Source: an uncultured Gaiellales bacterium | GTDB taxonomy: Bacteria; Actinomycetota; Thermoleophilia; Gaiellales; Gaiellaceae | DNA: 64,000 bases | Assembly: GCA_964461665.1 (NCBI GenBank) | Contig: CAYXAS010000002.1 | Coordinates: 5,400-69,399 of the forward strand | Direction: 5' to 3' | Part shown: positions 12,751 to 46,936 of the stretch, piece after piece | Numbering within the stretch: position 1 is the stretch's first letter | Layout: every line of letters begins with the position of its first letter | The notes under the pieces: generated by a model | Seen by the model: the letters and a program-made list of their open reading frames with translations, nothing else | The model's database searches: none | What the model was told of the DNA's origin: nothing | Made by a program: the position numbers and the translations under genes

Positions 12751-13611
12751 CTACACGAGCACGGTGACTGCGCCGGGCTCCGCCTCGAGCGTCACCGAGG
12801 CGACCTCGCCGAGCCCTTCCCCATCCACGTGGAATGGCAACGGACGATCAGCGCGAAGCTCGAGTCGCGCGAGATCGTGGCCGCGAATGTGTCGCGATCC
12901 GCGCCCGATTGCCCACCAGCCGAACCGGATCGCTCCACCGGTGGGGATGCGCTCGGGGGCGAAGACATCGAGGCCCGTCTCGAAGCTCGCCTCGGGCGCG
13001 AACCGCAGCCCGACCGGGCCCGCGAACGTGTAGGGGCTGCAGTTCACGACGAACGCGAAGGCAGCGCGTCCGATCCCGACAAGCTCGATCTCGGGTTCGA
13101 ACCGGTGCCGATGACCGACGAGCGCACGGAGCGTCTCGCGCGCAAAGACGATGTCACCTGGCCTCCGGCCTTCCGGGCTGCGCCCGAGTGCGTCGACCCG
13201 ACCAACGATCTCCGCATCGAAGCCGAGCCCTGCCGCGAACCCGAACCGGCGGCCGTCCGCGCGGCCGAGCCCGATGCGGCGCTCGTGCCCGGCGAGCGCG
13301 CGCCGTGCGGCGGCGACCGGGTCACGAGGGAGTCCGAGCGCGCGCGGCAGCACACTCGTCCCTCCCCCGGGGATCAGCCCGAGCGGCGTCCGTCCGTCGA
13401 TCCCATTCAGCACCTCGTTGAAGGTGCCGTCACCTCCGAACACGTAGATCCGCTCGACCGAGCCCACGAGCGAGCGGGCGAGCTCGACCCCGTCACCGTG
13501 GTGTTCCGTCTCCACGACGCCCGTCTCCGGTCCGAGCACGGCAAGAACCCGCTCGACCGCCTCGGGCGTGACCCCGGTTGACTTCGGATTGACCATGAGC
13601 GCTGCCCGCAT
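12751..13611 (-). CDS. Diacylglycerol-kinase-family lipid kinase (YegS/DagK-like)
   Basis: 286-aa ORF with NPKS..., IYVFGGDGTFNEVLNG and LGLIPGGGTSVLPRALG motifs of the DAGK catalytic domain. Confidence 0.85.
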   Translation of the reverse strand: MRAALMVNPKSTGVTPEAVERVLAVLGPETGVVETEHHGDGVELARSLVGSVERIYVFGGDGTFNEVLNGIDGRTPLGLIPGGGTSVLPRALGLPRDPVAAARRALAGHERRIGLGRADGRRFGFAAGLGFDAEIVGRVDALGRSPEGRRPGDIVFARETLRALVGHRHRFEPEIELVGIGRAAFAFVVNCSPYTFAGPVGLRFAPEASFETGLDVFAPERIPTGGAIRFGWWAIGRGSRHIRGHDLARLELRADRPLPFHVDGEGLGEVASVTLEAEPGAVTVLV

Positions 13612-13644
13612 GCCATCACGTTAGACATCTACGATCATCCTGCG

Positions 13645-13872
13645 ATGCGGGTCGACATCTTCTTCTGCCCCGTCTGAGGGGGCTACGACCGAGAGGCCGC
13701 GCGTGTCGCGGCCGAGCTACAGGAGGTCGGAGTCACTGCAACGGTGATCTCCGGAGAGAAGAGCCAGTTCGACGTGGTAGCCGATGGCGCACTGATCTTC
13801 TCGAAGCAGGCGACGGGGCGCTTCCCTGAGCCGGGCGAGATCGCCGCGCTCATCGCCCCCGCGAGCGGCTAG
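13645..13872 (+). CDS. Rdx/SelW-like thioredoxin-fold redox protein with in-frame UGA (candidate selenocysteine, CxxU)
   Basis: Absent from the ORF track. Manual translation: MRVDIFFCPV-TGA(13675-13677)-GGYDREAARVAAELQEVGVTATVISGEKSQFDVVADGALIFSKQATGRFPEPGEIAALIAPASG-TAG. The layout matches the Rdx family (CxxC/U after beta1; G.F.V..DG.lI.sk...GrFPe). 53 of 64 codons after the TGA end in G/C. Confidence 0.7.
13686..13729 (+). other. SECIS-like stem-loop downstream of the in-frame UGA
   Basis: Upper stem GGCCGCG (13695-13701) / CGCGGCC (13707-13713) with loop CGUGU. Lower stem CGACC (13686-13690) / GGUCG (13725-13729). The upper stem starts 18 nt after the UGA. Confidence 0.5.
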
Positions 13873-13874
13873 AC

Positions 13875-14840
13875 CTACCGCAGCAGGAAGCCCTCGCCGA
13901 TCGGGTCGGCCGGATCGAGCGAGAACTGCGCCTCGCCCGTCCTGAACGCACGCCCCTCCACCTCGGTCACGACCGCTGGGCGGCCTGCGACCTCCGTCTC
14001 CCCGACGACGCGACCCGTGAACTCGCTTCCGACGATCGAACGGTGACGGAGCGTTGCCCCACGCGGAAGCATCCCCTCCGCATCGAGGAGCGCGAGCCGC
14101 GCGGAGGTGCCCGAGCCGCACGGTGACCGATCGACCTCGCCGTCCGCGAACACCGTCACGTTCCGCTGCGTGAACGGCGGGCCCTCCTCGTCCTGCCAGA
14201 AGATCACCCCATACACGTCGCAGAGCTCCGGCTCGAGCGGATGGACGACCTCGTGCGCCTCCTCGATCAGCCGTTTCACCTCGCGGCCGAGCGAGATCAG
14301 TCGCGGTAGCTCGTCGGGCGCAACCCGCTCGCGCATGGTCGCGTAGAAGGCACCCCCGAACGCCACATCGACGGTGTGGGGGCCGACCGCGAGCCCGCGT
14401 GCCCACACGAACGAAGGGACGTTCGTGAATCGGACGGAGACAACCCTGCCGTCCCAAACAGTCGCGACCGTCTCGAGCCGACCAGAGGGGACGTCCACGA
14501 CGACGCGGTTCTCACCCTCCCGCCGCTCAACAACACCCTCGTCGAGTGCCCACGTGACGAGTGCGATCGTTCCGTGCCCACACGCGGTCGAGTACCCCGC
14601 GTTGTGGAAGAAAACGACGCCGAGATCGGCGCCCCCATCGTTCGGCGGAACGACGTGGCAGCCGTACATGTCCGCATGACCGCGCGGTTCGAGCACCACG
14701 AGACGGCGGACGTGGTCGAGGCGCTCGAGCGCATCACGACGCCGCTCGAGGATCGTCGTCCCGCGGAGCGGCTCGACACCACCCGTCACGATCCGGAAGG
14801 GCTCGCCGCCCGTGTGGTAGTCGACGACCTCGACCGTCAC
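13875..14840 (-). CDS. Proline racemase family enzyme (Cys/Cys type: 4-hydroxyproline 2-epimerase or proline racemase)
   Basis: ORF 13875..15029 with DYHTGGEPFRIV, ACGHGT and DRSPCGSGTSARLA (both catalytic Cys present). GTG 14840 gives a GTGA overlap with the upstream stop. Confidence 0.88.
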   Translation of the reverse strand: MTVEVVDYHTGGEPFRIVTGGVEPLRGTTILERRRDALERLDHVRRLVVLEPRGHADMYGCHVVPPNDGGADLGVVFFHNAGYSTACGHGTIALVTWALDEGVVERREGENRVVVDVPSGRLETVATVWDGRVVSVRFTNVPSFVWARGLAVGPHTVDVAFGGAFYATMRERVAPDELPRLISLGREVKRLIEEAHEVVHPLEPELCDVYGVIFWQDEEGPPFTQRNVTVFADGEVDRSPCGSGTSARLALLDAEGMLPRGATLRHRSIVGSEFTGRVVGETEVAGRPAVVTEVEGRAFRTGEAQFSLDPADPIGEGFLLR

Positions 14841-15610
14841 GAGCCCGTGAACCGGGGGGGCCTCCGCTCGAGGAACGCTGCGACACCCTCTGCGAAGTCC
14901 GCCGTCGCGACGATCCCTTGTTGCGTGGCCGCCTCGCGAGCAAGCTGGTCGTCGAGCGTCGATCCGCGCGCCGCATCGAGGAGGGCCTTCGTCCCGGCGA
15001 TCGCGGCCGTCGGCCGCTCCGCCCACCACGCCGCCGCCTCCGCGACCCGTGCGCGGAACTCCTCGTCAGGTACGACCTCGTGGACCAGCCCCCACTCGAG
15101 CGCCTCCTCCGCGGACACCCGGCGGTTCGAGCACATCCACTCGAACGCGCGCGCCGCCCCGAGCAGCCGCTCGATGAAATACGTCCCGCCCGCGTCCGGG
15201 ACGAGCCCGATCCCGATGAACCCGGGGACGAACGTGGCCGTGGACGAGGCGATCCGCACGTCACAGGCGAGCGCGAGCGAGAGTCCTGCCCCCGCCGCAA
15301 CTCCGTTTACCGCAGCGAGCACCGGTTTCGCGAGCGAGCGGATGAGTCGCACGTTCGGGTGGTACGTCCGCTCGAGCCCGTCCGCGATCGAGCCGGCGAC
15401 CTCGCCGAACTCGCGCAGGTCCTGCCCCGAGCAGAACCCCGCACCTTCGCCGGTGAGCACGACGCAGCGCACCGCAGGGTCGCCTGCCTCCACGAGTGCC
15501 GCATGAAGTTCCGCATGCAACTCCCGCGTGAGCGCGTTCCGTGTCGCGGGACGGTTGAGCGCGATCTCCAGCACGGCGCCGTCACGCCGCGTGAGCACCT
15601 CACCCGCCAT
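14837..15610 (-). CDS. Enoyl-CoA hydratase/isomerase (crotonase) family protein
   Basis: 257-aa ORF with LNRPATRNAL, VVLTGEGAGFCSGQDL and AAVNGVAAGAGLSLALACD crotonase signatures. Confidence 0.9.
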   Translation of the reverse strand: MAGEVLTRRDGAVLEIALNRPATRNALTRELHAELHAALVEAGDPAVRCVVLTGEGAGFCSGQDLREFGEVAGSIADGLERTYHPNVRLIRSLAKPVLAAVNGVAAGAGLSLALACDVRIASSTATFVPGFIGIGLVPDAGGTYFIERLLGAARAFEWMCSNRRVSAEEALEWGLVHEVVPDEEFRARVAEAAAWWAERPTAAIAGTKALLDAARGSTLDDQLAREAATQQGIVATADFAEGVAAFLERRPPRFTGS

Positions 15611-15642: not shown

Positions 15643-16089
15643 ATGAGCATGGGCGGAGCAGCAGGGATTTTTGCGGTCGCCGGCGGACTTGCGGCCACCG
15701 TCCAGCTCGCGGTGCTCGGCCGGCTCGGGGAACGGATCGGGACGCTCGAGGCAGGCGCGGTCGCGTGGCTCGTGACCGCGCTCGGCGGGGTCGTGCTGCT
15801 GCTGATCGCAGGAAAGGGATTCGGTGCGTATCGGGACGCGCTCCACGTCCCGTGGTGGATGGTTGCGGGCGCGCTCTCCGGCAACGTGATCGTCACCTCG
15901 ATCATCGTCGCGGGGCCGCAGATCGGGATCGTCGCAACCACCGCGCTGCTTCTCGTCGGCCAGGTCGCGAGCGGCGCGATCGTCGATCGCTACGGCCTTC
16001 TCGGGATGGAGCGGATCGCACTGAGCCCGACTCGCTGGGTCGGGATCGTGCTTGTGCTCGCCGGCGCCCTGCTGACGCTCCGGCGCTAG
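15643..16089 (+). CDS. DMT-superfamily small membrane transporter (YdcZ/DUF606-like)
   Basis: 148-aa ORF with 5 TM helices and family-like LLVGQVASGAIVDRYG. Confidence 0.7.
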   Translation: MSMGGAAGIFAVAGGLAATVQLAVLGRLGERIGTLEAGAVAWLVTALGGVVLLLIAGKGFGAYRDALHVPWWMVAGALSGNVIVTSIIVAGPQIGIVATTALLLVGQVASGAIVDRYGLLGMERIALSPTRWVGIVLVLAGALLTLRR

Positions 16090-16097
16090 GGTTCGGC

Positions 16098-17798
16098 ATG
16101 GCCTCCGACCTCGCGCGCCGCATCCGAATCGCGCGGGGTGACGAGCCCGCAGATCTCGTGGTCCGGGGAGGCCGCGTCTTCTCCTCGTTCACGCGTGAGT
16201 GGCTCGACGTGGACATCGCGGTCGCCGACGGGATCGTGGCCGGACTCGGCGCATACGACGGCGTGGAGATCCTCGATGCGAGCGGACGGTTCGTCGTCCC
16301 GGGATTCGTGGACGCGCATCTCCACCTCGAATCGGTGAAGCTGCTGGTGGACGAGTTCGCGCGCCTGGTGCTGCCGCTCGGGACGACCGCGGTCGTTGCC
16401 GACCCACACGAGATCGCGAACGTGCTGGGCGTGGATGGCGTCCACTGGCTGCTCGACGCATCCGCCGGGCTCCCGCTCGACGTGTTCTTCATGGCGCCGT
16501 CGTGCGTGCCCGCTTCCCCGTTCGAGTCGCCACGACGGGCACTCTCGGCGGGCGATCTCGAGGCGCTGATGCGACGCCGTCGGGTGCTCGGGCTGGCCGA
16601 GATGATGAACTTCCCCGGGGTCGTGAACGGCGACGCAGCGGAGCTCGCGAAGCTCGAGTTACGGGGAGCGGAGCATGTCGACGGACATGCGCCAGGGCTT
16701 CGGGGCCGCGATCTGCAGGCCTACGCGGCCGCGCGCATCTACTCCGATCATGAGGCGCTCACCGTCGAGGAGGGCCGTGAGCGGATCCGGGCGGGGATGT
16801 GGCTTCTCGCCCGGGAGGCGTCGATGGCGCGCAACCTCGAGGCGCTGCTCCCGCTCGTCGCGGAGTTCGGCCCTTCGCGCATCGCGTTCTGCACCGACGA
16901 CCGAGACCCGGAGGACATCGCGGACACGGGCCACGTGAACGGGATGGTGCGCACCGCGGTCGCCGCCGGGGTTGCACCCGAGGATGCGCTCCTGATGGCC
17001 TCGCTTCACGCGGCCCAGTGGCACGGCCTTTCACGCCACGGGGCGATCGCTCCGGGCTACCTCGCTGACCTCGTCTTCCTCCCAGATCTCGTCTCCTTCC
17101 AGCCGGACCGAGTCCTGAAGCGCGGACGACCGGTGGGCGAGATCCCGCCCGCGATCGTCCCGGACTGGGTGCGCCAGACCGTGAGGATCGCGCCGGTCGG
17201 CCCCAATGACTTCGCGATCCCGTGGGCGGGTGGCAGGGCCCGCGCGATCGGGCTGATCGACGACCAGGTCGTGACCGAGTCGCTCACGTGCGAACCGGAA
17301 ACGCTGAACGGCGAGGTCGTCGCGTCCGTGGCCCGGGATCTTGCAAAGGTCGCGGTGGTCGAGCGCCACCTCGCGACCGGGCGGATCGGGATGGGCCTGC
17401 TCTCAGGCTCAGGGCTGCAGCGGGGCGCGCTCGCCTCAACGGTCGCCCACGACGCCCACAACCTCGTCGTGGTCGGGATGAGCGACGACGACATGACACA
17501 CGCGGTGACACGACTCGCCGAGGTGGGTGGCGGGATCGTGGCGGTCGTGGACGGGAAGGTCGTCGCCGAATGCCCGCTGCCGGTCGCGGGTCTGCTCTCC
17601 GACGCTCCGCTCGCCGAGGTAATTGAGCAGAGCCGTGCCTGCAACGAGGCTGCGGCCGCACTCGGCTGGCGCGGCGCGACGCCGTTCCTCACACTCGCCT
17701 TCCTCGCGCTCTCGGTGATCCCCCACCTGAAGTTGACGGATCAGGGACTCGTGGACGTCGATCGGTTCGCGATCGTCCCGCTCGCCGCCGACGCGTAG
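16098..17798 (+). CDS. ade: Adenine deaminase
   Basis: ORF 15765..17798; ATG 16098 follows the upstream gene. It has DLVVRGGRVFSSFT, VPGFVDAHLHLES (amidohydrolase metal site), and a length of ~566 aa typical of Ade. Confidence 0.9.
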   Translation: MASDLARRIRIARGDEPADLVVRGGRVFSSFTREWLDVDIAVADGIVAGLGAYDGVEILDASGRFVVPGFVDAHLHLESVKLLVDEFARLVLPLGTTAVVADPHEIANVLGVDGVHWLLDASAGLPLDVFFMAPSCVPASPFESPRRALSAGDLEALMRRRRVLGLAEMMNFPGVVNGDAAELAKLELRGAEHVDGHAPGLRGRDLQAYAAARIYSDHEALTVEEGRERIRAGMWLLAREASMARNLEALLPLVAEFGPSRIAFCTDDRDPEDIADTGHVNGMVRTAVAAGVAPEDALLMASLHAAQWHGLSRHGAIAPGYLADLVFLPDLVSFQPDRVLKRGRPVGEIPPAIVPDWVRQTVRIAPVGPNDFAIPWAGGRARAIGLIDDQVVTESLTCEPETLNGEVVASVARDLAKVAVVERHLATGRIGMGLLSGSGLQRGALASTVAHDAHNLVVVGMSDDDMTHAVTRLAEVGGGIVAVVDGKVVAECPLPVAGLLSDAPLAEVIEQSRACNEAAAALGWRGATPFLTLAFLALSVIPHLKLTDQGLVDVDRFAIVPLAADA

Positions 17799-19091: not shown

Positions 19092-21311
19092 TCAGAGCGC
19101 GATGTCGTCCGGGCGCACCGGAACGCGCATCAGAGAGCGCCCGGTTGCGGCTCGCAACGCAGACGCGATCGCCGCGGTCGAGACGACGGTCGGTGGTTCA
19201 CCAACGCCCTTCAGCCCGTAGGGCGCATCTGGCTCGGGATCCTCGACGAGATCGATCGTGAGTGGCGGCATGTCGAGCGCGGTCGGGATCAGATAGTCGG
19301 TGAAACTCGCGTTCGCGATCCGCCCGTCACGGGTCACGATCTCCTCCATCACGGCGAGACCGAGACCCTGCGCGGTGCCACCCTCGATCTGGCCCTCGAC
19401 GGCGCGGGGGTTGAGTGCCCGCCCGACATCCTGTGAAACGCCGATCCACGCGATCCGGCTGAGACCGAGGTCGACGTCCACCTCAGCGACGACACGCATC
19501 GCACAGACGGCGAATGCGACGTGCACACGCTCTCCGAGAGCCTGGCCGTTCTCCGGATCGAGCGCGCTCGTCGGTACGTGACGATGGATCCGCTCGACAT
19601 CGACCTCGCCGCCGCCCTGGAGCTCACGCTGCTCGAGCGCGGCACGACAGGCATCCCGCACGGCGCCCGCCGCCATCCAGGTCATGCGTGACGCGGACGC
19701 CGATCCCGCTGACCCGACGGTCGCGGTGGTGTGCGGCGCGAGGGTGACGTCGTCGGTCCCGAGCTCGGTGCGCGCGACCTGGAGGATGATCCCCTGGACA
19801 CCCTGTCCGACCTCGGTCGCAGCGCTGTGGACGACAGCGCTGCCGTCGCCCTGGAGGACGACCCGGGCTGCGCAGTAGTCGTCGAACCCCTCCGAGAAAC
19901 AGAGGTTCTTGAACCCGACAGCGAACCCGACCCCGCGCCTGACGCCTTCCCCGTTGGTGGTGTTGCCCGCACCACCGGGGAGCCGGATCGGGTCGCGCGG
20001 GAGCGCCTCGGCCTCCGGGACGGGGAGCGCAGCGGCGCGGCGGATCACCTCGCGCGTCGGGAGCGACCCGGTGACGATCTGGCCTGTCGGCAGGACGTCG
20101 CCCGGCTCCATCGCGTTCAGGAGCCGCAGCTCGACCGGATCGATCCCGAGTGCCTCGGCGAGCCTGTCCATCTGCGCCTCGATCGCGAAGCACGCCTGCA
20201 CGGCCCCAAACCCGCGCATCGCGCCGCAGGGAGGGTTGTTCGTATAGACGGAGGTGGACTCGATCGCGAGGTTGTCTACGCGGTACGGGCCGATCGCCAT
20301 CCCGGCCGCGTTCGAGGTGACGGCCGCCGAACTCGAGGCGTACGCGCCGCCGTCGAGCAGGATCCGCGCGCGGACGAACGTGAGGCGGCCGTCGCGCGTG
20401 GCGCGATGCTCGTACCAGAGCTTCGCTGGGTGTCGGTGGACGTGGCCGATGAAGGACTCCGCGCGGTCGTAGACGATCCTCACCGGGCGATTCGTGTGGA
20501 GCGCGAGCAGCGCCGCATGGATCTGCATCGAGAGGTCCTCGCGACCGCCGAACGCGCCCCCGACACCGGCGAGATGGACGCGCACCTGCTCGGGTGAGAG
20601 CCCGAGACACGGCGCGATCTGGTCGCGGTCGACATGGAGCCACTGGGTGGCGACGTGGATGTCGACGCCTCCCTCGCTATCCGGGACTGCAAGTCCGGAC
20701 TCGGGGCCGAGGAACGCCTGATCCTGCGTGCCGACCTCGTACACGCCTTCGACGACGACGTCGCCCGGGGTATCCGGGTCGCCACGACGGATCACCATGT
20801 GACGGACGATGTTGGGTCTCGGGTCGTCGCGATACCCGTGCGCCATTGTCGGTCGGTCGGGATGGAGCGGGGGCATCTCGGTTGCGCGCTCCATGTCGGC
20901 GATCGGCTCGAGCGGTTCGTACTCGACGACGATCGCCGCGACCGCGCGGCGCGCCTGTTCCGGGTGCTCCGCCGCGACGATCGCGACCGCCTCCCCCTGG
21001 TAGCGAACGACATCGCGGGCGAGAACCGGCTGATCGGCGAACTCCAGTCCGTATGTCTTGCGGCCGGGGACGTCCTGCCATGTGAGCACGGCGTGCACGC
21101 CCGGCATCGTGAGCGCCTGCGTGATGTCGATCGAGACGATCCGTGCGTGCGCGTGCGGACTGCGCAGGGTGTCCCCGACCAGCATCCCGGGGGCCACGAG
21201 ATCGCTCGAATAGGCGAATTCACCCCTCACCTTGGCGGGCGCATCGAGGCGAAGTGGGCTCTCGCCGATCCGCCCAACCGAGAGCGCACGCTCCCGCTCT
21301 GCGACGCTCAC
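19092..21311 (-). CDS. Xanthine dehydrogenase family molybdopterin-binding large subunit
   Basis: 739-aa ORF with an N-terminal a/b-hammerhead region (LRLDAPAKVRGEFAYSSDL...HAHARIVSID) and Moco domains. The GTG start overlaps the 2Fe-2S subunit stop. Confidence 0.9.
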   Translation of the reverse strand: MSVAERERALSVGRIGESPLRLDAPAKVRGEFAYSSDLVAPGMLVGDTLRSPHAHARIVSIDITQALTMPGVHAVLTWQDVPGRKTYGLEFADQPVLARDVVRYQGEAVAIVAAEHPEQARRAVAAIVVEYEPLEPIADMERATEMPPLHPDRPTMAHGYRDDPRPNIVRHMVIRRGDPDTPGDVVVEGVYEVGTQDQAFLGPESGLAVPDSEGGVDIHVATQWLHVDRDQIAPCLGLSPEQVRVHLAGVGGAFGGREDLSMQIHAALLALHTNRPVRIVYDRAESFIGHVHRHPAKLWYEHRATRDGRLTFVRARILLDGGAYASSSAAVTSNAAGMAIGPYRVDNLAIESTSVYTNNPPCGAMRGFGAVQACFAIEAQMDRLAEALGIDPVELRLLNAMEPGDVLPTGQIVTGSLPTREVIRRAAALPVPEAEALPRDPIRLPGGAGNTTNGEGVRRGVGFAVGFKNLCFSEGFDDYCAARVVLQGDGSAVVHSAATEVGQGVQGIILQVARTELGTDDVTLAPHTTATVGSAGSASASRMTWMAAGAVRDACRAALEQRELQGGGEVDVERIHRHVPTSALDPENGQALGERVHVAFAVCAMRVVAEVDVDLGLSRIAWIGVSQDVGRALNPRAVEGQIEGGTAQGLGLAVMEEIVTRDGRIANASFTDYLIPTALDMPPLTIDLVEDPEPDAPYGLKGVGEPPTVVSTAAIASALRAATGRSLMRVPVRPDDIAL

Positions 21312-34244: not shown

Positions 34245-35717
34245 TCAGGCGTTCGGCCCGCTTGCGAGCGACTCGGCGAGCGCGGCAAGCTCCGCCAACG
34301 CCGACTCGAGTTCCTCGACGATCTCTCGAGCGATCGCGCCGGGTGGTGGCAAGTTCTCGGCGCCCTCGAGGGAGAGATCCTTGAGCCACGTGATGTCGAG
34401 GCTCGCCTTGTCTCGCGCGACGAGCTCGTCGTAACCGAACCGCCTGAACCGCTCCGACTCCACGCGGCTTGCACGGTCGCCGGCCTGGAAGCAGCTGACG
34501 AACTCGTCGAGGTGCTCGCGGTGAAGCGGGTTCTGCTTGAGCGTGAAGTGCTGATTGGTGCGGAGGTCGTACACCCACAACTCGCGCGTCCACGGCTGTT
34601 CGGCGGCGGGCTTGCGGTCGAAGAAGAGGACGTTCGCCTTCACACCCTGGGCGTAGAAGATGCCGGTGGGCAGGCGCAGCAGCGTGTGCACGTCGCACTC
34701 CTCGAGCAGCCGCCGACGCACCGTCTCCCCCGCGCCTCCCTCGAACAGCACGTTGTCGGGCACGACGACCGCTGCCTTACCGTTGATCGCAAGCATCGTT
34801 CTGACGTGCTGCACGAAGTTGAGCTGCTTGTTCGAGGTTGACGCCCAGAAGTCGTCGCGCACCACCACGAGATCGTCGCGGGCGACCTCCCCCTCGTCAC
34901 TCACGAACGTGATTGACGACTTCCGACCGAACGGCGGGTTCGTGAGCACCATCTCGAACCTCTCGCCCGAGTCGGACTTGAGCGCATCCTCGACAGCGAT
35001 CGGGCTCTCGTGCTCCTCGTCACCGATCCCGTGAAGGAGCAGGTTCATCACACACAGCCGCGCGGTGTTGTCGACGATCTCCCAGCCCCGCACCGCCTCG
35101 TAGCGCAGGTGCCACTTCTCGTCGGGGTCGAGCAGCCCGCTCTTCGCGATCGACTCGTGCGCTGCGAGCAGGAAGCCGCCTGTGCCGCAGGCCGGGTCGG
35201 CGATCCGCGTCCCGGGCTGCGGCTGCATCACCTCCACGATCGCCCGGATCAGTGGCCGTGGCGTGAAGTACTGCCCGGCGCCGGACTTCACGTCCTCGGC
35301 ATTCTTCTCGAGCAGCCCCTCGTAGGCGTCGCCCTTCACGTCGATGTCGAGCGTCAGCCAGGCCTCGCGGTCGATCAGGTCGGCGACCAGGCGGCGAAGC
35401 TTCGCCGGATCCTGGATCCGGTTTTGCGCCTTGCGGAACACCACCCCGAGCATCCCCGGCTTCCGCCCGAGCTCGGTGAGGACGTGCCGATAGTGCACCT
35501 CGAGCGCGTCGCCATCGCGCTCGAGTAGCGACTGCCAGCCGAGCTCCGCCGGCACGATCGCCGGGCGCGAGAACGGCGGCCGCGTCTGCTCGTCCGCCAT
35601 CTTCAGGAACAGCAGGTAGGTGAGCTGTTCCAGGTAGTCGCCGTACGAGAGCCCGTCGTCGCGCAGGACGTTGCAGTAACTCCACAGGCGCTGGACGAGG
35701 CCGTGCTGTGCGCTCAT
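34245..35717 (-). CDS. hsdM: Type I restriction-modification N6-adenine DNA methyltransferase subunit
   Basis: Real part of ORF 34245..35972 from ATG 35717 (MSAQHGLVQRLWSYCNVLRDDG...). It has HsdM N-terminal domain features, motif I DPACGTGGFL and motif IV NPPFG. Confidence 0.93.
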   Translation of the reverse strand: MSAQHGLVQRLWSYCNVLRDDGLSYGDYLEQLTYLLFLKMADEQTRPPFSRPAIVPAELGWQSLLERDGDALEVHYRHVLTELGRKPGMLGVVFRKAQNRIQDPAKLRRLVADLIDREAWLTLDIDVKGDAYEGLLEKNAEDVKSGAGQYFTPRPLIRAIVEVMQPQPGTRIADPACGTGGFLLAAHESIAKSGLLDPDEKWHLRYEAVRGWEIVDNTARLCVMNLLLHGIGDEEHESPIAVEDALKSDSGERFEMVLTNPPFGRKSSITFVSDEGEVARDDLVVVRDDFWASTSNKQLNFVQHVRTMLAINGKAAVVVPDNVLFEGGAGETVRRRLLEECDVHTLLRLPTGIFYAQGVKANVLFFDRKPAAEQPWTRELWVYDLRTNQHFTLKQNPLHREHLDEFVSCFQAGDRASRVESERFRRFGYDELVARDKASLDITWLKDLSLEGAENLPPPGAIAREIVEELESALAELAALAESLASGPNA

Positions 35718-36121
35718 GCCAGCCGAACTCGCGTGATCCGCATCTTGTGCACGGTGTAGAGGAACGGCCCCGGATCTTCGCACACGGCCTCGATGCGCTG
35801 CCGGTGTCGGATGAGCCGCTCTGCCTGCTCGGCGGCGGCAAGGTTGCCGCTCGCCAACACGAACGCCTTCACACGGAAGCGGCGGATTGCCGCAAGTTCG
35901 GCCGGGCGGTAGCGGATGCGGCGATCCATCGTGAGCACCGGCCACTGCTCGCTGCCGCAGAGCGTGAGCCACTCCACATCCTCAACCGCCTCGTCGCGGC
36001 CTCCGAAGACCTCGCGGTGCGTGCGGATGACCCATCCCGCGTCGCGGAGCGCATCGGCAACGTCGCGTGCACCGAGGCTTCTGTCGATGAAGAACTCAGG
36101 CGGCGACGGGGAGTGCGGCAC
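35714..36121 (-). CDS. PIN-like (DUF5615 / VapC45-like) putative toxin
   Basis: Real part of ORF 35714..36229 from GTG 36121. The sequence is EFFIDRSLGARDVADALRDAGWVIRTHREVFGGRDEAVEDVEWLTLCGSEQWPVLTMDRRIRY, about 135 aa. The stop overlaps the hsdM ATG (ATGA). Confidence 0.65.
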   Translation of the reverse strand: MPHSPSPPEFFIDRSLGARDVADALRDAGWVIRTHREVFGGRDEAVEDVEWLTLCGSEQWPVLTMDRRIRYRPAELAAIRRFRVKAFVLASGNLAAAEQAERLIRHRQRIEAVCEDPGPFLYTVHKMRITRVRLA

Positions 36122-36809
36122 GCAGGTACTCCTCGACGTCAGCGGCCGGGACGCCGAAGTCCCGTGCGACGTGATCGAGCGACTCCCCAGCCTTCCAGCG
36201 GCTGACGACGCTCTCGACCGGCGCTGCACCGCGCATGAACATCGGCTGGCCGAACGCTCGCAGAGGATCGATCACTACGACGGGCTCGCGGGTGGTCGGC
36301 GAGGCGAGTTGCGTAGCCCACCCGTCGGTTCCGTACTCGATGCGCTTCAGGTACGCCTGCACGATCGGTGCGAACACCCGCTGTTGCGAGACGACCTCCG
36401 TCAGACCCGCGAGCTCGTCGTCGTGCTGCGCGCCTGCGTAGTCGAACAGGATCACGGCGCCGTCCGTGTAGACCTTCTGTGATGCGAGGGCGTGCGCGAT
36501 GCCGATCTCGTGGTCGAGGATCGCGACCGCCTTGCGGATGTGTTGCATGCTCACGCCCCCACGCCTGAACGCCGCGAGCACCATCCCCTCGGCTAGCCCA
36601 ATGAACGGGATGCTCGGAAAGCCGCAGTCGGCATCGACGCTCGTGACGAGAGCAGCGCCATGGACTGGGGGGCGAGCCGGGGGCTGACGCACATAGCCCC
36701 GCGCCCAGGTCGCGAACGTCGACGTCGGCACGCCGAGGAAGCGAGCCGCCTCGTTGAGCGTGTAGAGCGGCGCTGCGAAGCGCAGATCGTCTGTGGCGGC
36801 GGTCGTCAT
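36096..36809 (-). CDS. HTH + DUF433 protein (VapB45-like putative antitoxin)
   Basis: 237-aa ORF with an N-terminal HTH (YTLNEAARFLGVPTSTFATWARG) and a C-terminal DUF433-like segment (VIDPLRAFGQPMFMRGAAPVESVVSRWKAGESLDHVARDFGVPAADVEEYL). The ATG overlaps the hsdS stop. Confidence 0.7.
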   Translation of the reverse strand: MTTAATDDLRFAAPLYTLNEAARFLGVPTSTFATWARGYVRQPPARPPVHGAALVTSVDADCGFPSIPFIGLAEGMVLAAFRRGGVSMQHIRKAVAILDHEIGIAHALASQKVYTDGAVILFDYAGAQHDDELAGLTEVVSQQRVFAPIVQAYLKRIEYGTDGWATQLASPTTREPVVVIDPLRAFGQPMFMRGAAPVESVVSRWKAGESLDHVARDFGVPAADVEEYLRAALPVAA

Positions 36810-38098
36810 CCCGACATGGTCGCACGTCGGCGTGGGTGTCCGCCAGTCGCCCTCTCGGACATGGCCCGTTCCGCGCGGATGCGGGCGAGGAGCGCCTCGG
36901 CCGGCTCGTCGGCCGGGGCCTGCGTGACGAGCTCGCCACGGAACGCGCGCTCGAGGATCGCACGGCGGAGCATCCGGGAGCGCGCCTGTGCCCGCTCGAT
37001 CGCGGCGCGCGCAGCATCGATCGCGGAGAGCTGCTCCTCGATCCGCGCCACGATCCGGCGCTGCTCGTCAAGGGGCGGGACCGGGATCTCGACGGTCTTG
37101 AACCTGGCGAGAGACACCTTCTTCTGCGCGACCCCGCTCGTAATCCGAGCGATCTGCGTTCTCACGCCATGCAGCACAAATGTCAATGCCAGATAGGCGG
37201 CCTCGGCCTCGTTGCATGGGGTCACCTTGATGCAGTCCGCCGTCAGCACGGCGGGCGGCCTATTACTCGGATAGACCGCAGCATCTCCAGGCGGGTCTCC
37301 CATCTTCGTAACGAGCAGGTCGCCTGCACGGACTTGGTGCGCGGCCAGCGCCTTGGCTTTCTCGGCCGATATGAACCGCGTTCCCGGTCCGCCGAACGCC
37401 CTGCGGCGGATGTCTCGAACGAAGATCAGTGGAACCCCGGAATCCGCGTAGTCGCTGACCTTGAGGTTGCTTCCGAACGGCCCGATCGCGAGTGCGTGTC
37501 GGCTTCCATCGCCGAGACGTTCCATCCGGCGAGTCATCCAGTCATCACCGATCGCGTCCACTACAGCGCTGCGACGCAGCGCATCAAGGCGGCGGAAGGC
37601 GGCTGAGAGGGAGGCGTCGGCGGCGTCGAGGCGGGAGAAGTGCTCCTCGATCGCCGCCACGATCCGCCGCTGCTCGGCGAGCGGCGCGACTGCGATCGTG
37701 TGAGCCCTCACCTGGTTGCCGTTTACTGCCTCAAACGTAGAACCCGTCCCAAGCTCTGCAAGGCTGCGGACTGACGCCCGGATCGCCCACAGCACGTAGC
37801 GGGAGTCGATACCTCCAAGAGGCCTGACGGCCGCAAGCCCGCGGCCGATAACACAGTCGGTTGGAGCGAGGTTCGTAGGCCCAACGGGGGCGCGTATGGA
37901 CAGCAGCACATCGCCTGCGCGTGCGAACTTGGACCCAGCGGTTGTCCACTTCTGAACCGTGGGCGTTAGGTCGCCGAACTCAGCCTTGCCCTGGAAGAAG
38001 GGCCGACCTTCACCATCGGCGTTGTAGAAACTCCCCGGCGGGGACTGGCCCAGGACGATCTCCGCAACCTCGTCGAGCCGAGCAGCGATCCAGCTCAC
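36806..38098 (-). CDS. hsdS: Type I restriction-modification specificity subunit
   Basis: 430-aa ORF with two target-recognition domains. They are separated and followed by the conserved helices PLAEQRRIVAAIEEHFSRLDAA and PLDEQRRIVARIEEQLSAIDAA. The TRD DNA is AT-richer (32 G+C of 60 nt counted at 37141-37200). Confidence 0.92.
   Translation of the reverse strand: MSWIAARLDEVAEIVLGQSPPGSFYNADGEGRPFFQGKAEFGDLTPTVQKWTTAGSKFARAGDVLLSIRAPVGPTNLAPTDCVIGRGLAAVRPLGGIDSRYVLWAIRASVRSLAELGTGSTFEAVNGNQVRAHTIAVAPLAEQRRIVAAIEEHFSRLDAADASLSAAFRRLDALRRSAVVDAIGDDWMTRRMERLGDGSRHALAIGPFGSNLKVSDYADSGVPLIFVRDIRRRAFGGPGTRFISAEKAKALAAHQVRAGDLLVTKMGDPPGDAAVYPSNRPPAVLTADCIKVTPCNEAEAAYLALTFVLHGVRTQIARITSGVAQKKVSLARFKTVEIPVPPLDEQRRIVARIEEQLSAIDAARAAIERAQARSRMLRRAILERAFRGELVTQAPADEPAEALLARIRAERAMSERATGGHPRRRATMSG
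37031..37676 (-). repeat. Pair of 37-bp direct repeats inside hsdS (conserved-region repeats)
   Basis: 37031-37067 (ctgctcctcgatccgcgccacgatccggcgctgctcg) versus 37640-37676 (gtgctcctcgatcgccgccacgatccgccgctgctcg). 33 of 37 positions are identical and the copies are 609 bp apart. Confidence 0.85.
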
Positions 38099-40896
38099 GC
38101 GGCGAGCGCCTCGTTGATCTCCGCGAGCAGAGGCGTGAGCCCGTCGCCGAACACCTGGGCCGCCCGCCCGAGCCCGCCCGCCTCGAGGAACGGCGTGAGG
38201 GAGAAGTCCTCGGCCGTGATCGCGAGCGAAGCGGAGACGTGGTCACGGATCCGGTCGAGCCAGGCGCGCTGCTCCCCGCTGAACATGCGCCCGGCGTTCT
38301 CCTGCTGGAGCAGCCAGGCGCGGTAGCGCTCGCGCACCAGATCGGGGTAGGCAACGAGCTCCTCGTCGTAGTGGAGCGCAACGCGGACGAGCGAGACGAG
38401 ATCGGTGAGGACGCGCCCGCCGGAGCCGTGGACTCTCGAGCGGTCGAGCTGCTCGTAGGCGGACCACAGCCGCTCGGGCGTCCAACCGTGCGGTGGGCGC
38501 GCGATCGCGAGGGCGAGCTCCTTCACCTCGCGGAAGGTGAGCCGCTGCGGCTGGCGGCGGGCGTAGAGGATCTCGAGCGCGGTGATCTCGTCGCGGTTGT
38601 CCGCACAGAAGCGCTCCCATGATTCGACGGTCCGCCGGGCGAGATCGGCGGCGTCGGCGGAGTAGCCAGCGTCGATCACCTCGTCGGTGGAGGTCTCGTC
38701 GATCGCCTGCTCGTGCATGCGGCGGAGATCGACGAGCCGCCGCCGCAGGTCGGGGCTGGTGGCGAGCGGGGCCAGCGCCTCGTCGAGCAGCCGCCGGGCG
38801 GTATCGACGATCTGCTCGGCGACGGGATCGACGCCACCTGCGGTCGCGCGCGCGGCCGCGAGTTGCCGATCGGGGTCGAGCGCGGTGACGATCTCGGACG
38901 CGATCTCCTTCAGCGTGCGACCGCCAGCGAGGACCCTAAGTTCGGCTCGTTCGTCCTTCCCGAGACGGCGGTCGAGTCGCGAGAGGCGCGCGGCGATCGA
39001 GGAGGCGACCTCCGGGTCGCGGTCGCCAAACGACACCTGGGTGAGCAGTTTCTCCAACGGGACGGTGGGAGCGCGGTCGAGCGGGACGGTGTCGACCAGT
39101 TCGCTCTCGGTGACGCCAACCGCATCGACGATCACGAACCGCTCCTTCGCCTTCGCGTCAGGGGTGACGGCCTGGAAGGCGGTCTCGTCGATCACGCGGA
39201 CACCGCGGCCCTTCATCTGCTCGAAGTACGTGCGGCTCTTGACCGAGCGCAGGAAGAACACGCACTCGAGTGGCTTCACGTCGGTGCCGGTGGCGATCAT
39301 GTCGACGGTCACCGCGATGCGCGGGTTGTAGGCGTTGCGGAAGGCGGCGATCAGCTCGTCGGCTTTCTTGCCCGTCGCCTTGTAGGTGATCTTTGCCGCG
39401 AAGTCGTTGCCCTTGCCGAACACTTCGCGCGCGAGCTGGACGATCTCGTCAGCGTGGGCGTCGTCCTTCGCGAAGATCAGCGTCTTCGGCACCTCGCTGC
39501 GGCCGGGGAAGATCTCGGTGAAGAGCTTGTCGCGGAAGGCCTCGAGCACGGTTCGGATCTGGTCGCGGGCCACGATGTCGCGGTCGAGTTGGGCCGCGGT
39601 GTAGTCGAGATCCTCGTCGAGCGTCTCCCAGCGGGCCTTGCGGGTCTGCCGGTCGCGAAACTCGGTCACGATCCCCGCGTCGATCGTCGAACCCTGCTCG
39701 GTGATCCGGGTGCGGATCCGGTACACGTCGAAGGGGACGTTGACCTGGTCGACGACAGCCTGCTCGTGCCCGTACTCCATCACGAGGTTCTGGTTGAAGA
39801 ACCCGAACGCCTGCTTGTTCGGTGTAGCCGTCAGACCGACCGTGAATGCGTCGAAGTAGTCGAGTACCTGCCGCCAGTTCCCGTAGATCGAGCGGTGGCA
39901 CTCATCCACGATCACAACGTCGAACATCTCCGGCGGAACCGCGGGGTTGTATTCGACCGGCACCGCCTCGGCCGCCAGCTCGTAGGCGGAGCGCTCGTCC
40001 AGCTCTGCGTCCAGTTCCGCGTCACCGCGGAGGATCGAATAGACCCGCTGGATCGTGGAGATACAGACACGGGACACCGGGTCGATCGTGTTCGAGCCGA
40101 GGTGCTGCACGTTGTAGAGATCGGTGAACTTCCGGCCGTCATCGGGCGTCGTGAACCCCTGGAACTCCTTCAGCGTCTGCCGCCCCAGGTTCGCCCGGTC
40201 GACCAGGAACAGGATCCGGCGGGCGTCTGCATGCTTGATCAGGCGGTACGCGACGTTCGCTGCGGTGAACGTCTTGCCCGAGCCGGTCGCCATCTGGATC
40301 AGCGCCCGCGGCAGGCCGTGCGCCAGAGAGGCCTCCAGGTTCGTGATCGCCGTGTGCTGCGCCGGCCAGAGTCCGGTGGGCTGCAGGTCGGGCGTCGCAC
40401 GGACGCGGTGTCGGAGTGTCGGCGCGAGCGGGTGGCGTCGCCGCTCGTCGAGCCAGCCGATCAGTGTCTCGGGCCGGTGGAACGAGAACACCGGCCGACT
40501 CGCCGGGTCGGGGTCGAGGCGGTTCGTGAACCGAGTCTCCGTCGCGGTCGACTCGTACACGAACGGCAAGCCGCCCTCGACCGCGGGCACGAGAGCGTCC
40601 GGCAGCCCGTCGGCGTAGCGGGCGCTCTGCCACTCGACCCCCGTCAGGGTCTCACCCTCCTTCTTCGCCTCGATCACCCCGGCGGCGCGGCCTTCGAGGA
40701 ACAGCAGGTAGTCCGCCCGGCCGTGGGGCGGCCTCATCACGAACTCCCGCACCGCAACCCCGCGCGAAGTGCCGAGGTTCACCGCGTCGGCACTCTGCAC
40801 CGTCCACCCTGAGGCTTCGAGCATGCGGTCGATCCCGACCCGGGCTCGCGCCTCGGGACCCAGGTATGCGGCGACGTCTCTAGTCACAGCGAGCAT
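38095..40896 (-). CDS. hsdR: Type I restriction endonuclease subunit R
   Basis: 933-aa ORF with an N-terminal nuclease region (RADYLLFLEGRAAGVIEAKK), SF2 helicase Walker A MATGSGKT and a DEAH-like VIVDECHRS. It also has a long C-terminal helical domain. The stop overlaps the hsdS GTG. Confidence 0.93.
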   Translation of the reverse strand: MLAVTRDVAAYLGPEARARVGIDRMLEASGWTVQSADAVNLGTSRGVAVREFVMRPPHGRADYLLFLEGRAAGVIEAKKEGETLTGVEWQSARYADGLPDALVPAVEGGLPFVYESTATETRFTNRLDPDPASRPVFSFHRPETLIGWLDERRRHPLAPTLRHRVRATPDLQPTGLWPAQHTAITNLEASLAHGLPRALIQMATGSGKTFTAANVAYRLIKHADARRILFLVDRANLGRQTLKEFQGFTTPDDGRKFTDLYNVQHLGSNTIDPVSRVCISTIQRVYSILRGDAELDAELDERSAYELAAEAVPVEYNPAVPPEMFDVVIVDECHRSIYGNWRQVLDYFDAFTVGLTATPNKQAFGFFNQNLVMEYGHEQAVVDQVNVPFDVYRIRTRITEQGSTIDAGIVTEFRDRQTRKARWETLDEDLDYTAAQLDRDIVARDQIRTVLEAFRDKLFTEIFPGRSEVPKTLIFAKDDAHADEIVQLAREVFGKGNDFAAKITYKATGKKADELIAAFRNAYNPRIAVTVDMIATGTDVKPLECVFFLRSVKSRTYFEQMKGRGVRVIDETAFQAVTPDAKAKERFVIVDAVGVTESELVDTVPLDRAPTVPLEKLLTQVSFGDRDPEVASSIAARLSRLDRRLGKDERAELRVLAGGRTLKEIASEIVTALDPDRQLAAARATAGGVDPVAEQIVDTARRLLDEALAPLATSPDLRRRLVDLRRMHEQAIDETSTDEVIDAGYSADAADLARRTVESWERFCADNRDEITALEILYARRQPQRLTFREVKELALAIARPPHGWTPERLWSAYEQLDRSRVHGSGGRVLTDLVSLVRVALHYDEELVAYPDLVRERYRAWLLQQENAGRMFSGEQRAWLDRIRDHVSASLAITAEDFSLTPFLEAGGLGRAAQVFGDGLTPLLAEINEALAA

Positions 40897-44958: not shown

Positions 44959-45908
44959 TCGGTGTTGATCGGCTCGAGCGTGGCCATCATCTCGTCGCGC
45001 ATGTGCGCGAATACGGGGGGAACCATGAACCCCTTGCCGAGCTGGTCGGCGGGTTCGTCGATCGTCCACCCTTCCGGCTTCGACCACGCGAGTTCGACGA
45101 GGGCGCCGCTGGGTGAGCGGTTGTACGTCGAGCAGAAGTAGCCGCGATCCTTCATCTCGGTCACGTCGGTGTACCCGATCCCCTCGACGTGGAACTTCGC
45201 CTTCTCCTGCGCCTCGGCGTTGCCGATGTCGTAGGCGACGTGGTGCACTGTCCCCTCGGCAAAGTGCCAGGTGCCCGGCCGCACATCCGGTTCGTGCAGG
45301 AGATCGATGACCCGGCCGACCCCATCCCCCATCTCGTAGCGGCGGGTTTCCGCGCTCTCATCCGTGACGGTCGCCCCGTGTCCGACCGTGAGGTAGTGGT
45401 GCATTGGGTCGAGGTCGAGGACCGAGATCGTGACGCCGTAGGTGCCACGGATCGCGCGTTCGACCGGGACGCCGTTCCCGCCCCACGGCCTGCCGTACGC
45501 GGCGTCGTTGTCCTCGCCGACGAACGAGTACTCGATCCCGCACGGGTGGGCGAAGTGGATCCGCGGCGCGCCCGCGCGCTCGGCAGCCTCCCAGCGGATC
45601 CCGTGCTCGCCGAGCCGGTTCGACCACCAGTCGAGCGATGACGCGGGCACCGAGAGATCGACCGACTTGACCTGGTTCGACCCGGCGCGGCCCATGAGGC
45701 CAAGGTGGCGGACGGGGAAGGAGGTGATGATCGTCCCGGGGTCGCCGTCCGCGTTTCCGTAGTAGAGGTGGTAGATCGGCGAGGTGCCGTCGTAGAGCGC
45801 GGTCTTCTTGATGAACCGCAGCCCGAGCACCCGTGCGTGAAAGTCGTAGTCCTCCTGCGCTCCGCCCGTCGAGAGCGTCAGGTGGTGGTTGCGGCGGATC
45901 GCGGTCAT
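44955..45908 (-). CDS. VOC-superfamily ring-cleaving (hydroquinone-type, MhqO/MhqE-like) dioxygenase
   Basis: Real part of ORF 44955..46322 from ATG 45908 (MTAIRRNHHLTLSTGGAQEDYDFHARVLGLRFIKKT...). It has two glyoxalase-like repeats. Confidence 0.8.
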   Translation of the reverse strand: MTAIRRNHHLTLSTGGAQEDYDFHARVLGLRFIKKTALYDGTSPIYHLYYGNADGDPGTIITSFPVRHLGLMGRAGSNQVKSVDLSVPASSLDWWSNRLGEHGIRWEAAERAGAPRIHFAHPCGIEYSFVGEDNDAAYGRPWGGNGVPVERAIRGTYGVTISVLDLDPMHHYLTVGHGATVTDESAETRRYEMGDGVGRVIDLLHEPDVRPGTWHFAEGTVHHVAYDIGNAEAQEKAKFHVEGIGYTDVTEMKDRGYFCSTYNRSPSGALVELAWSKPEGWTIDEPADQLGKGFMVPPVFAHMRDEMMATLEPINTD

Positions 45909-45971
45909 CACATGCTCCCTCGCGTCGTCGGTTGCGCCTCGTCGGGCCAGCGCGAGCCTATCGCGCCCGGG

Positions 45972-45986
45972 AACCTTGACAAGGTT
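45972..45986. promoter_or_regulatory. Perfect 15-bp palindrome AACCTTGACAAGGTT in divergent promoter region (contains TTGACA)
   Basis: Read directly at 45972-45986, between the divergent dioxygenase genes (starts at 45908 and 46044). It embeds a consensus -35 hexamer on the plus strand. Confidence 0.45.
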
Positions 45987-46043
45987 GCCGCCCGCTGCGA
46001 CGTTCGCCTGCGACGCACGCATGCGCCGTGCGAACATCCCACG

Positions 46044-46925
46044 ATGACCCACGACGCCGACGCCACCTCCCCCGCCGACATCACCGCGGGTGTGCTCGCC
46101 GCCTTCGCGGGGTGCGAGGACGAGCGACTCCTGGAGATCATGCGGGCGCTCGTTCGCCATCTCCACGGGTTCGCGGTCGAGGTCGGCCTGACGGGCAAGG
46201 AGTGGGAGGCGGGGATCCGCTTCCTGACCGACACCGGCCACATCACCGACGAGGTGCGGCAGGAGTTCATCCTCCTCTCGGACACGCTCGGCTTCTCGAT
46301 GCTCGTGGACGCGGTCAACCACGATCGGGCGGGCGGCGGCACGGAGTCGACGGTGCTCGGCCCGTTTTGGGCGGCGGCCTCCCCCGAGCGGCCCTACGGG
46401 GACTCGATCATCGAAGAGCCAGCGGGGGAACCGGTCTTCGTGCGCGGGCGGGTGCTCTCGCTCAATGGGACGCCGATCGCGGGCGCCCGCCTAGACGTCT
46501 GGCAGAACGGGGACGACAGCCTCTACCAGGTGCAGAAGCCAGACGGCAACCCCCACAATCTGCGCGGGCTGTTCACGACCCGCGAGGACGGGGGGTTCGC
46601 GTTCGTCGCGGTGCGCCCGACCGACTACACGATCCCGGACGACGGCCCGGTGGGGAAGATGCTCGCGGCGACCGGGCGACACGCCTGGCGGCCCGCGCAC
46701 CTCCACGTGATCGTGAGCGCGGGGGGGCACGAGACGGTCGTCACCCACCTGTTCGACCGCGAGAGCACCCACCTCGACTCCGACGTCGTGTTCGGCGTCA
46801 AGCCGTCGCTCATCCGCGACTTCGTGTCGCGCGACCCGGACGATGCCGAACGGCCCGCGGGCATCGAGGGCGCCTGGTTCTCGCTCGAGACCGACTTCGT
46901 CCTCGTCCCCGCGACCGGCGACTGA
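46044..46925 (+). CDS. Intradiol ring-cleavage dioxygenase (hydroxyquinol 1,2-dioxygenase-like)
   Basis: Real part of ORF 45705..46925 from ATG 46044. It has LSDTLGFSMLVD, GRVLSLNGTPIAGARLDVWQ and HAWRPAHLHV motifs of the catechol/hydroxyquinol 1,2-dioxygenases. Confidence 0.88.
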   Translation: MTHDADATSPADITAGVLAAFAGCEDERLLEIMRALVRHLHGFAVEVGLTGKEWEAGIRFLTDTGHITDEVRQEFILLSDTLGFSMLVDAVNHDRAGGGTESTVLGPFWAAASPERPYGDSIIEEPAGEPVFVRGRVLSLNGTPIAGARLDVWQNGDDSLYQVQKPDGNPHNLRGLFTTREDGGFAFVAVRPTDYTIPDDGPVGKMLAATGRHAWRPAHLHVIVSAGGHETVVTHLFDRESTHLDSDVVFGVKPSLIRDFVSRDPDDAERPAGIEGAWFSLETDFVLVPATGD

Positions 46926-46936
46926 CGGGCGGCCGC

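Follow-up and report, generated by a model that had tools for sequence, protein, structure and literature searches.

A conserved in-frame TGA and a SECIS-like hairpin point to a SelW-like selenoprotein gene in a Gaiellales bacterium and its relatives

The window studied here, i.e., the whole stretch of 64 kb of DNA that was analyzed, contains a gap of 263 bp between two genes on the minus strand, and the plus strand of this gap raises the question whether a reading frame interrupted by a TGA codon encodes one complete protein and, if so, how the TGA is read. Starting from ATG 13645, the frame translates as MRVDIFFCPV*GGYDREAARVAAELQEVGVTATVISGEKSQFDVVADGALIFSKQATGRFPEPGEIAALIAPASG*, with 10 sense codons preceding the TGA and 64 following it. 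An earlier note on this DNA had interpreted the frame as a hidden selenoprotein gene of the Rdx (SelW/SelT/SelH) family, and upon re-reading of the sequence its coordinates for the ATG, the TGA, the TAG, the hairpin and the TACGAT box proved exact (Table 1). The same holds true for the number of G/C-ending codons after the TGA, for which a recount gave the identical value of 53/64. Before the TGA all 10 codons end in G or C, and the figures for the other two frames of the same stretch are 46/64 and 32/64. On the basis of the evidence set out below, we consider it very likely that positions 13645-13872 of the plus strand encode an Rdx family protein in which the second redox position is read as selenocysteine (Sec).

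A reassigned genetic code was considered as well and ruled out. TGA terminates 37 of 56 genes in the window and is thereby its most frequent ordinary stop codon, so that the code must be standard and only the TGA within the Rdx gene is special. The stop codon of the Rdx frame and that of the convergent Pro_racemase gene (13875-13877, minus strand) lie 2 nt apart, and an intrinsic-terminator pattern is absent here (13870-13877).

Table 1. Features of the Rdx locus, given in window coordinates together with the basis on which each was recognized.
Feature	Position	Strand	Remarks and basis
DAGK_cat/YegS-like gene	12751-13611	-	flanking gene
-10-like box TACGAT (TANNNT)	13630-13635	+	read from sequence; 9 nt before ATG
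Complete CDS, probable Rdx/SelW-like selenoprotein	13645-13872	+	75 residues including putative Sec11, plus TAG; translation, Pfam, ortholog matches, GC3
Start codon ATG, probable 5' end of leaderless mRNA	13645-13647	+	sole in-frame start candidate 5' of the TGA
Codon TGC, first redox Cys (C8) of the CPVU motif	13666-13668	+	Cys invariant among orthologs
In-frame TGA, putative selenocysteine codon (U11)	13675-13677	+	column conservation
SECIS-like hairpin	13695-13713	+	fold, pairing, covariation, invariant loop G-U
Hairpin 5' arm	13695-13701	+	fold
Hairpin pentaloop CGUGU	13702-13706	+	fold
Hairpin 3' arm	13707-13713	+	fold
42-aa fragment with GTG start, as called automatically	13744-13872	+	ORF list; identical to database entry P0002
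Stop codon TAG	13870-13872	+	translation
Pro_racemase gene	13875 to about 14840	-	flanking gene

The earlier note had assigned the read-through product to the Rdx family and had named the Pfam profile PF10262 as the means of checking this. The search, performed with U written as C, was significant (42.2 bits, E = 9.4e-11) and lies above the curated gathering threshold of 22.6 bits. The match spans residues 2-70 and positions 1-72 of the 74 model positions, i.e., the full domain, and the family assignment stands. With the NCBIfam models the picture is graded: the subfamily model TIGR02174 (CXXU_selWTH) is narrowly missed with 32.2 bits vs. a cutoff of 34.2, and the equivalog model NF041051 (SelTWH_Campy) yields about 57.2 bits vs. 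a cutoff of 88. The window gene is not assignable to this Campylobacter-type equivalog, which leaves its membership in Rdx at the Pfam level unaffected.

Within the window protein, the motif C8-P-V-U11 directly follows the sequence VDIFF of the first strand (b1). The TGA column is aligned with Cys in the solved Rdx structures 2LJK and 2FA8 and also in P0001 (CPVC), a full-length natural Cys homolog that stems from a metagenomic locus (L001) and is 65% identical to the window protein. This places the TGA at the second redox position of the CxxC/U motif, just as had been proposed. An AF2 model of the Cys ortholog P0001 (pLDDT 86.7) displays the topology b1-CxxC-a1-b2-b3-b4-a2, with the CxxC located between the strand E3-8 and the helical segments H10-13/H16-29. 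When this model was submitted to Foldseek, the 23 best PDB matches were all SelW-related or Rdx proteins (TM 0.63-0.76), among them 2P0G, 2FA8, 2OKA, 2OBK, 2OJL, 3DEX, mouse SelW 2NPB and MIEN1 2LJK, and thioredoxins rank after these 23 entries. Judged from the model of its ortholog, the window protein should likewise adopt a thioredoxin-like fold.

A scan in which each GTDB species was represented by one genome revealed 243 loci coding for a relative. Of these 243 loci the best 80 were kept, almost all of them labeled as Gaiellaceae, Gaiellales, Gaiella sp., Thermoleophilia or unclassified Actinomycetota MAGs; together with the window and the metagenome locus of P0001 they form a comparison set of 82 sequences. 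At the position in question, TGA occurs in 81/82 sequences and the Cys codon TGT in the remaining one, TAA and TAG being absent from all 82. The first redox Cys is invariant in 81/81 aligned orthologs (TGC in 80, TGT in one). Matches obtained by tblastn start at query residues 1-5 and end at residues 61-74, and the alignments therefore cross the TGA. Conservation at the protein level is seen on both sides, with xVEIFYCP[VT] before the TGA and xGYDxRAASLAAEL... after it, so that the comparison of orthologs suggested in the earlier note came out in favor of its reading. Synonymous variation is present before the TGA, where Pro is encoded by CCC, CCG, CCT or CCA and Tyr by TAC or TAT, and wobble positions outside the hairpin vary normally.

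An error of sequencing or assembly hiding a true TGC or TGT codon would require a difference of one single base, and nothing specific speaks for it; as the TGA is found in 80 independent assemblies that originate from different projects and different sequencing technologies, the probability of such an error is practically negligible.

Protein databases contain the gene almost exclusively in truncated form. When 5.8 billion proteins were searched, 105 relatives were retrieved, 104 of which have a length of 42-64 aa. All 15 of the short relatives that were inspected begin after the TGA position, and several of the short entries are labeled "predicted Rdx family selenoprotein" or "Rdx family protein". 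The database entry of the window itself, P0002, is the 42-aa fragment from GTG 13744, in line with the expectation voiced beforehand that gene callers would truncate this gene. Gene finders would do so, here as in hundreds of related genomes of soil actinobacteria, because they take the UGA codon for the active-site selenocysteine to be a "stop". The fact that automatic callers report fragments of 42-48 aa only could also be taken to mean that the TGA is a true stop and that the locus is either a pseudogene or the source of nothing but the 42-aa C-terminal fragment, a reading that we regard as most improbable for several reasons. Protein-level conservation accompanied by synonymous variation is seen in the 10 codons that precede the TGA, the stretch from the TGA to the internal start is conserved as well, and orthologs disagree on where the internal start lies and which codon it uses. 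Moreover, the fragment is devoid of b1 and CxxU and consequently of the active site of the family, and in a pseudogene TGA would not have persisted in 81 sequences without ever being replaced by TAA or TAG. If the TGA is instead read as Sec, the annotation error is a systematic one: the window and at least 80 reference genomes carry the gene either as a 42-64-aa fragment or unrecorded, and about 100 further protein-database clusters are equally truncated and lack the active site.

The hairpin located downstream of the TGA provides a further line of evidence. In the window it has the sequence GGCCGCG-CGUGU-CGCGGCC and a minimum free energy (MFE) of -13.0 kcal/mol. Its stem begins 17 nt downstream of the UGA, and 24 nt (13678-13701) separate the UGA from the apical loop; the latter spacing is identical in all orthologs because the alignment of the 72 nt around the TGA contains no gaps. 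A comparison with shuffled sequences, made on DNA of 69% GC, resulted in z values of -1.3 to -1.7, with 11-17 out of 200 shuffles folding equally well or better. As the fold is no better than that of GC-rich shuffles, the single sequence alone does not prove an RNA element, and significance beyond chance derives from the Rdx profile match given above and from the comparison of the 81 orthologous loci.

For the alignment of orthologs, RNAalifold predicted exactly one helix, comprising 7 bp and formed by the two arms listed in Table 1. The stem is paired in 98.7% of the alignment cells, as compared to 28-50% for slid controls. Compensatory changes are found at three of the seven stem pairs (G-C to A-U, C-G to U-A and G-C to C-G), and further G-U intermediates occur among the orthologs. 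The 7-bp GC stem with its GU-containing pentaloop, which the earlier note had taken for a bacterial SECIS, is thus conserved as a helix. This is not the case for the lower stem that was proposed in addition: CGACC (13686-13690) and GGUCG (13725-13729) do pair in the minimum-energy fold of the window, but they are paired in 41% of the ortholog cells and are absent from the RNAalifold consensus. Since it is not conserved, we rejected the lower stem as part of the element and regard it as a coincidence of the window's single sequence.

Three loop variants exist in the comparison set, AGUCU (77 sequences), CGUGU (four sequences, namely the window, L002, L007 and L021) and GGUCU (one sequence). Loop positions 2 and 3 are G and U in 82/82 sequences. 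The loop of the window is accordingly a minority variant, the first and last bases of which are unable to pair, unlike those of the majority form AGUCU, for which a loop of 3-5 nt and a stem of 7-8 bp result. The loop variants are coupled to variants of the encoded peptide, RAASLAAE occurring with AGUCU (77 sequences) and EAARVAAE with CGUGU (window plus three; positions 13693-13715 in the window and 10049-10071 in L002, L007 and L021). Both loop codons switch together, from AGU CUC to CGU GUC, and the G-U at loop positions 2-3 is retained.

Selection at the RNA level is also apparent from codon usage. Codons within the hairpin are nearly fixed (Ala GCG in 79/79, Ser AGT in 77/77 and Leu CTC in 78/78 cases; at two further positions Ala GCG in 68/72 and Ala GCC in 73/78), and their entropy amounts to 0-0.4 bits vs. 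1.2-1.7 bits for columns of Ala, Leu, Ser and Gly elsewhere in the gene. The codons forming the loop are rare in the genes of this genome, AGT accounting for 3.9% of Ser and CGT for 10.9% of Arg codons. Near-fixed synonymous codons that are rare at the same time indicate that selection acts on the RNA and that protein constraint alone is insufficient as an explanation. A published model of bacterial SECIS elements (bSECIS) calls for an upper stem of 4-16 bp capped by a loop of 3-9 nt, in which one of the first two bases is G and the next one usually G or U, for a distance of 16-37 nt between UGA and apical loop, and an MFE of -7.5 kcal/mol or lower (PMC13188914). The window and every ortholog conform to all four constraints, the MFE of the hairpin ranging from -7.6 to -14.7 kcal/mol in 81/81 orthologs. 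In a permissive Rfam search of positions 13600-13900, neither a SECIS-type nor any other curated family matched the hairpin.

The sole Cys form in the comparison set, with TGT at L001 (L001:1057-1097), retains an intact SECIS hairpin, GGCUGCGAGUCUCGCGGCC, of -12.5 kcal/mol. The persistence of the hairpin beside a TGT codon suggests a recent conversion from Sec to Cys.

Because the TGA and a SelB-type hairpin have been under purifying selection across 81 sequences, we infer that Sec is inserted at the UGA. According to the mechanism that we propose, UGA at codon 11 would be recoded as Sec, resulting in an active site Cys8-Pro-Val-Sec11, and the 19-nt hairpin in the coding region would act as a bacterial SECIS whose loop presents G-U. 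The hairpin is predicted to bind SelB·GTP·Sec-tRNA(Sec) and to deliver it to a ribosome paused at the UGA. By analogy with other members of the family, the protein may then serve a redox role, in which it would cycle between a selenenylsulfide and the reduced selenol/thiol form and thereby reduce or oxidize a partner.

Genes for selA, selB, selD and tRNA-Sec were found neither in the 64-kb window nor, in the 81 loci, in the flanks of up to 10 kb around the Rdx gene. When E. coli SelA, SelB and SelD served as tblastn queries against the 1.32 Mb made up of the window and the 81 loci, no match had an E value below 0.04, and ARAGORN and Rfam detected only ordinary tRNAs in the window and related loci. 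The lack of Sec machinery in this sequence space is compatible with an organism that does not possess it and in which the UGA is read through by near-cognate suppression with Trp, Cys or Arg, the hairpin serving as a stimulator only. Hairpins located after stop codons can indeed stimulate read-through in other systems, which lends this alternative some general plausibility. We nevertheless judge it very unlikely. The UGA is situated exactly at the redox position of the CxxC/U motif, and the sole alternative codon found there encodes Cys; the hairpin fits a SelB-type bSECIS in spacing, loop size and invariant G-U. It is furthermore implausible that an inefficient site should have been kept in 81/82 sequences when a single change from TGA to TGC or TGT would repair it, and the Sec form of CxxU is documented for bacterial SelW-like proteins (PMC1088965, PMC1794560). 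Taken together, we hold with high confidence that the locus represents a genuine Sec-encoding Rdx gene.

A Sec/Cys homology scan of the 1.32 Mb for a second selenoprotein was swamped in its first pass by Arg/Ser-rich shadow frames, and a stricter scan of the same 1.32 Mb, in which the Rdx positive control was lost too, yielded no second selenoprotein. A covariance model of the hairpin (R1) recovered 82/82 known copies; none of its best additional hits (29 bits for L033, 25 bits or less for the others) has an in-frame TGA ahead of it in a coding frame.

Another question concerns the start of the transcript, which the earlier note had suggested to be leaderless. A TANNNT box close to the start codon in the absence of a Shine-Dalgarno sequence is a signature of leaderless transcripts in actinobacteria that has been established for mycobacteria. 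In the window, a Shine-Dalgarno-like run is not visible between the TACGAT box and the ATG, and a scan for an E. coli-type -35/-10 promoter was negative. A TANNNT box is present 6-9 nt, mostly 7 nt, before the first in-frame start in 78/81 orthologous loci, examples being TAGGCT, TACGCT, TAGAGT and TACGAT; with a background of 0.00056 per nt, it would be expected in about 1.6% of loci. The spacer of the window marks the long end of this range. The start codons of the orthologs are ATG (33), GTG (44) and TTG (1), and they are located 9-13 codons before the TGA. The comparison thus supports the original suggestion, and the mRNA is probably leaderless and transcribed from the TANNNT box. In mechanistic terms, TANNNT would constitute a promoter with a -10 element only, and the AUG would be placed at or next to the 5' end.

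Bacterial SECIS elements are well known from the E. coli genes fdhF and fdnG, where a stem-loop resides within the open reading frame just 3' of the UGA and the G-U of its loop is needed for SelB binding. The element described here resembles them in being an in-frame stem-loop after the UGA with an apical G-U and a spacing within 16-37 nt. It differs from them in that there is no sequence similarity and in that its 7-bp GC stem is perfect and lacks a bulged U. In eukaryotic SelW, on the other hand, the SECIS is located in the 3'-UTR and functions with SBP2 and eEFSec, whereas the element of the window lies inside the coding sequence right after the UGA, i.e., it is arranged in bacterial style.

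SelW-like proteins with a CxxU motif have been catalogued in the Sargasso Sea/GOS data and in genome surveys; they are present in several sequenced bacteria, and they constituted the most abundant selenoprotein family in the Sargasso Sea data set with 48 Sec vs. 7 Cys forms, Sec having been suggested as the ancestral state (PMC1088965, PMC1794560). Bacterial selenoproteins of this type have been known since 2005, and neither a new mechanism nor a new protein family is described here. The gene of the window shares with them the Pfam family Rdx, formerly termed "Selenoprotein W-related", the position of CxxU at the b1-a1 junction, and the in-frame UGA followed by a hairpin in the coding region with a small loop containing G (PMC1088965, PMC1794560); by analogy, the presumed redox role would also be the same. 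It is set apart from them by the clade-specific sequence of the hairpin, by an apparently leaderless mRNA and by its host lineage (Gaiellaceae/Gaiellales/Thermoleophilia), which is not linked to such proteins in the literature found. Decoding of Sec is known for several Actinobacteria (PMC1794560, PMC5029168), and a literature search for reports linking Gaiella, Gaiellales, Thermoleophilia or Conexibacter to the use of selenocysteine found none.

Among solved structures, the closest comparison is offered by Cys-containing Rdx proteins, namely those from V. cholerae (2P0G), A. tumefaciens (Atu0228, 2FA8), P. aeruginosa (2OKA) and S. avermitilis (SAV_2001, 3DEX). They superimpose on the AF2 model of P0001 with TM scores of 0.7-0.76, carry the CxxC in the same place and are of similar size (about 75-85 residues), but have Cys and not Sec and are 23-30% identical. 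Mammalian SelW (2NPB) and MIEN1 (2LJK) belong to the same family and exhibit the same fold; SelW contains CxxU as well, and MIEN1 is the best sequence match among the solved structures (E = 0.017).

A wider claim, namely that Gaiellales and their relatives, which are abundant soil Actinomycetota, universally produce a SelW-like selenoprotein whose mRNA is leaderless and holds the whole recoding cassette within its first 70 nt, has in our estimation about an even chance of being correct. If it holds, the cassette would open with a 5'-terminal AUG or GUG and continue with a UGA, placed at codon 11 in the window as in most loci and at codons 10-14 overall, and with the 19-nt SECIS, which would span roughly +51 to +69; it would rank among the most compact natural units for Sec insertion. 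SelB would then have to act on a ribosome that had begun translation as a 70S particle on a 5'-terminal start codon. The gene may furthermore serve as a marker for the decoding of UGA as Sec in a poorly studied and mostly uncultured soil lineage, and the uniform 19-nt hairpin provides a putative SECIS signature of the clade together with a covariance model that could be put to use in finding further selenoproteins in these genomes.

As to the genomic neighborhood, genes resembling paaA, paaC and paaD are located upstream on the same strand in 34, 41 and 44 of the 82 loci, respectively, and a PaaG-like enoyl-CoA hydratase is encoded downstream on the opposite strand in 53 loci including the window (14837-15610). 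A PaaE-like reductase was not detected within 10 kb of any locus. A functional link between the Rdx gene and the adjacent paaABCD/paaG phenylacetyl-CoA genes is a possibility, which we treat as a lead only because the Rdx gene and paaD are separated by anything between 18 bp and 9 kb, depending on the locus, because the Rdx gene has its own promoter box and because paaA-D are absent from the window.

Several further observations were made in the window. The longest open reading frame of the Pro_racemase gene (384 aa, 13875-15029, minus strand) shares about 190 nt with the enoyl-CoA hydratase gene. As the Pfam match begins at residue 5 of a 321-aa version, the true start of Pro_racemase is probably located near 14840. 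Open reading frames for an intradiol-dioxygenase-like and an FAD-monooxygenase-like protein (aromatic catabolism) are present at 45705-48688 on the plus strand; they were missed by the GC3-based gene call because of overlapping shadow ORFs, and base composition is normal in this region. A gene for adenine deaminase (15765-17798) is situated near one for a molybdenum subunit of the xanthine dehydrogenase family (19092-21311). The minus strand finally carries type I restriction-modification genes at 34245-40896, with an HsdM-like protein at 34245-35972 and an HsdR-like protein at 38095-40896.
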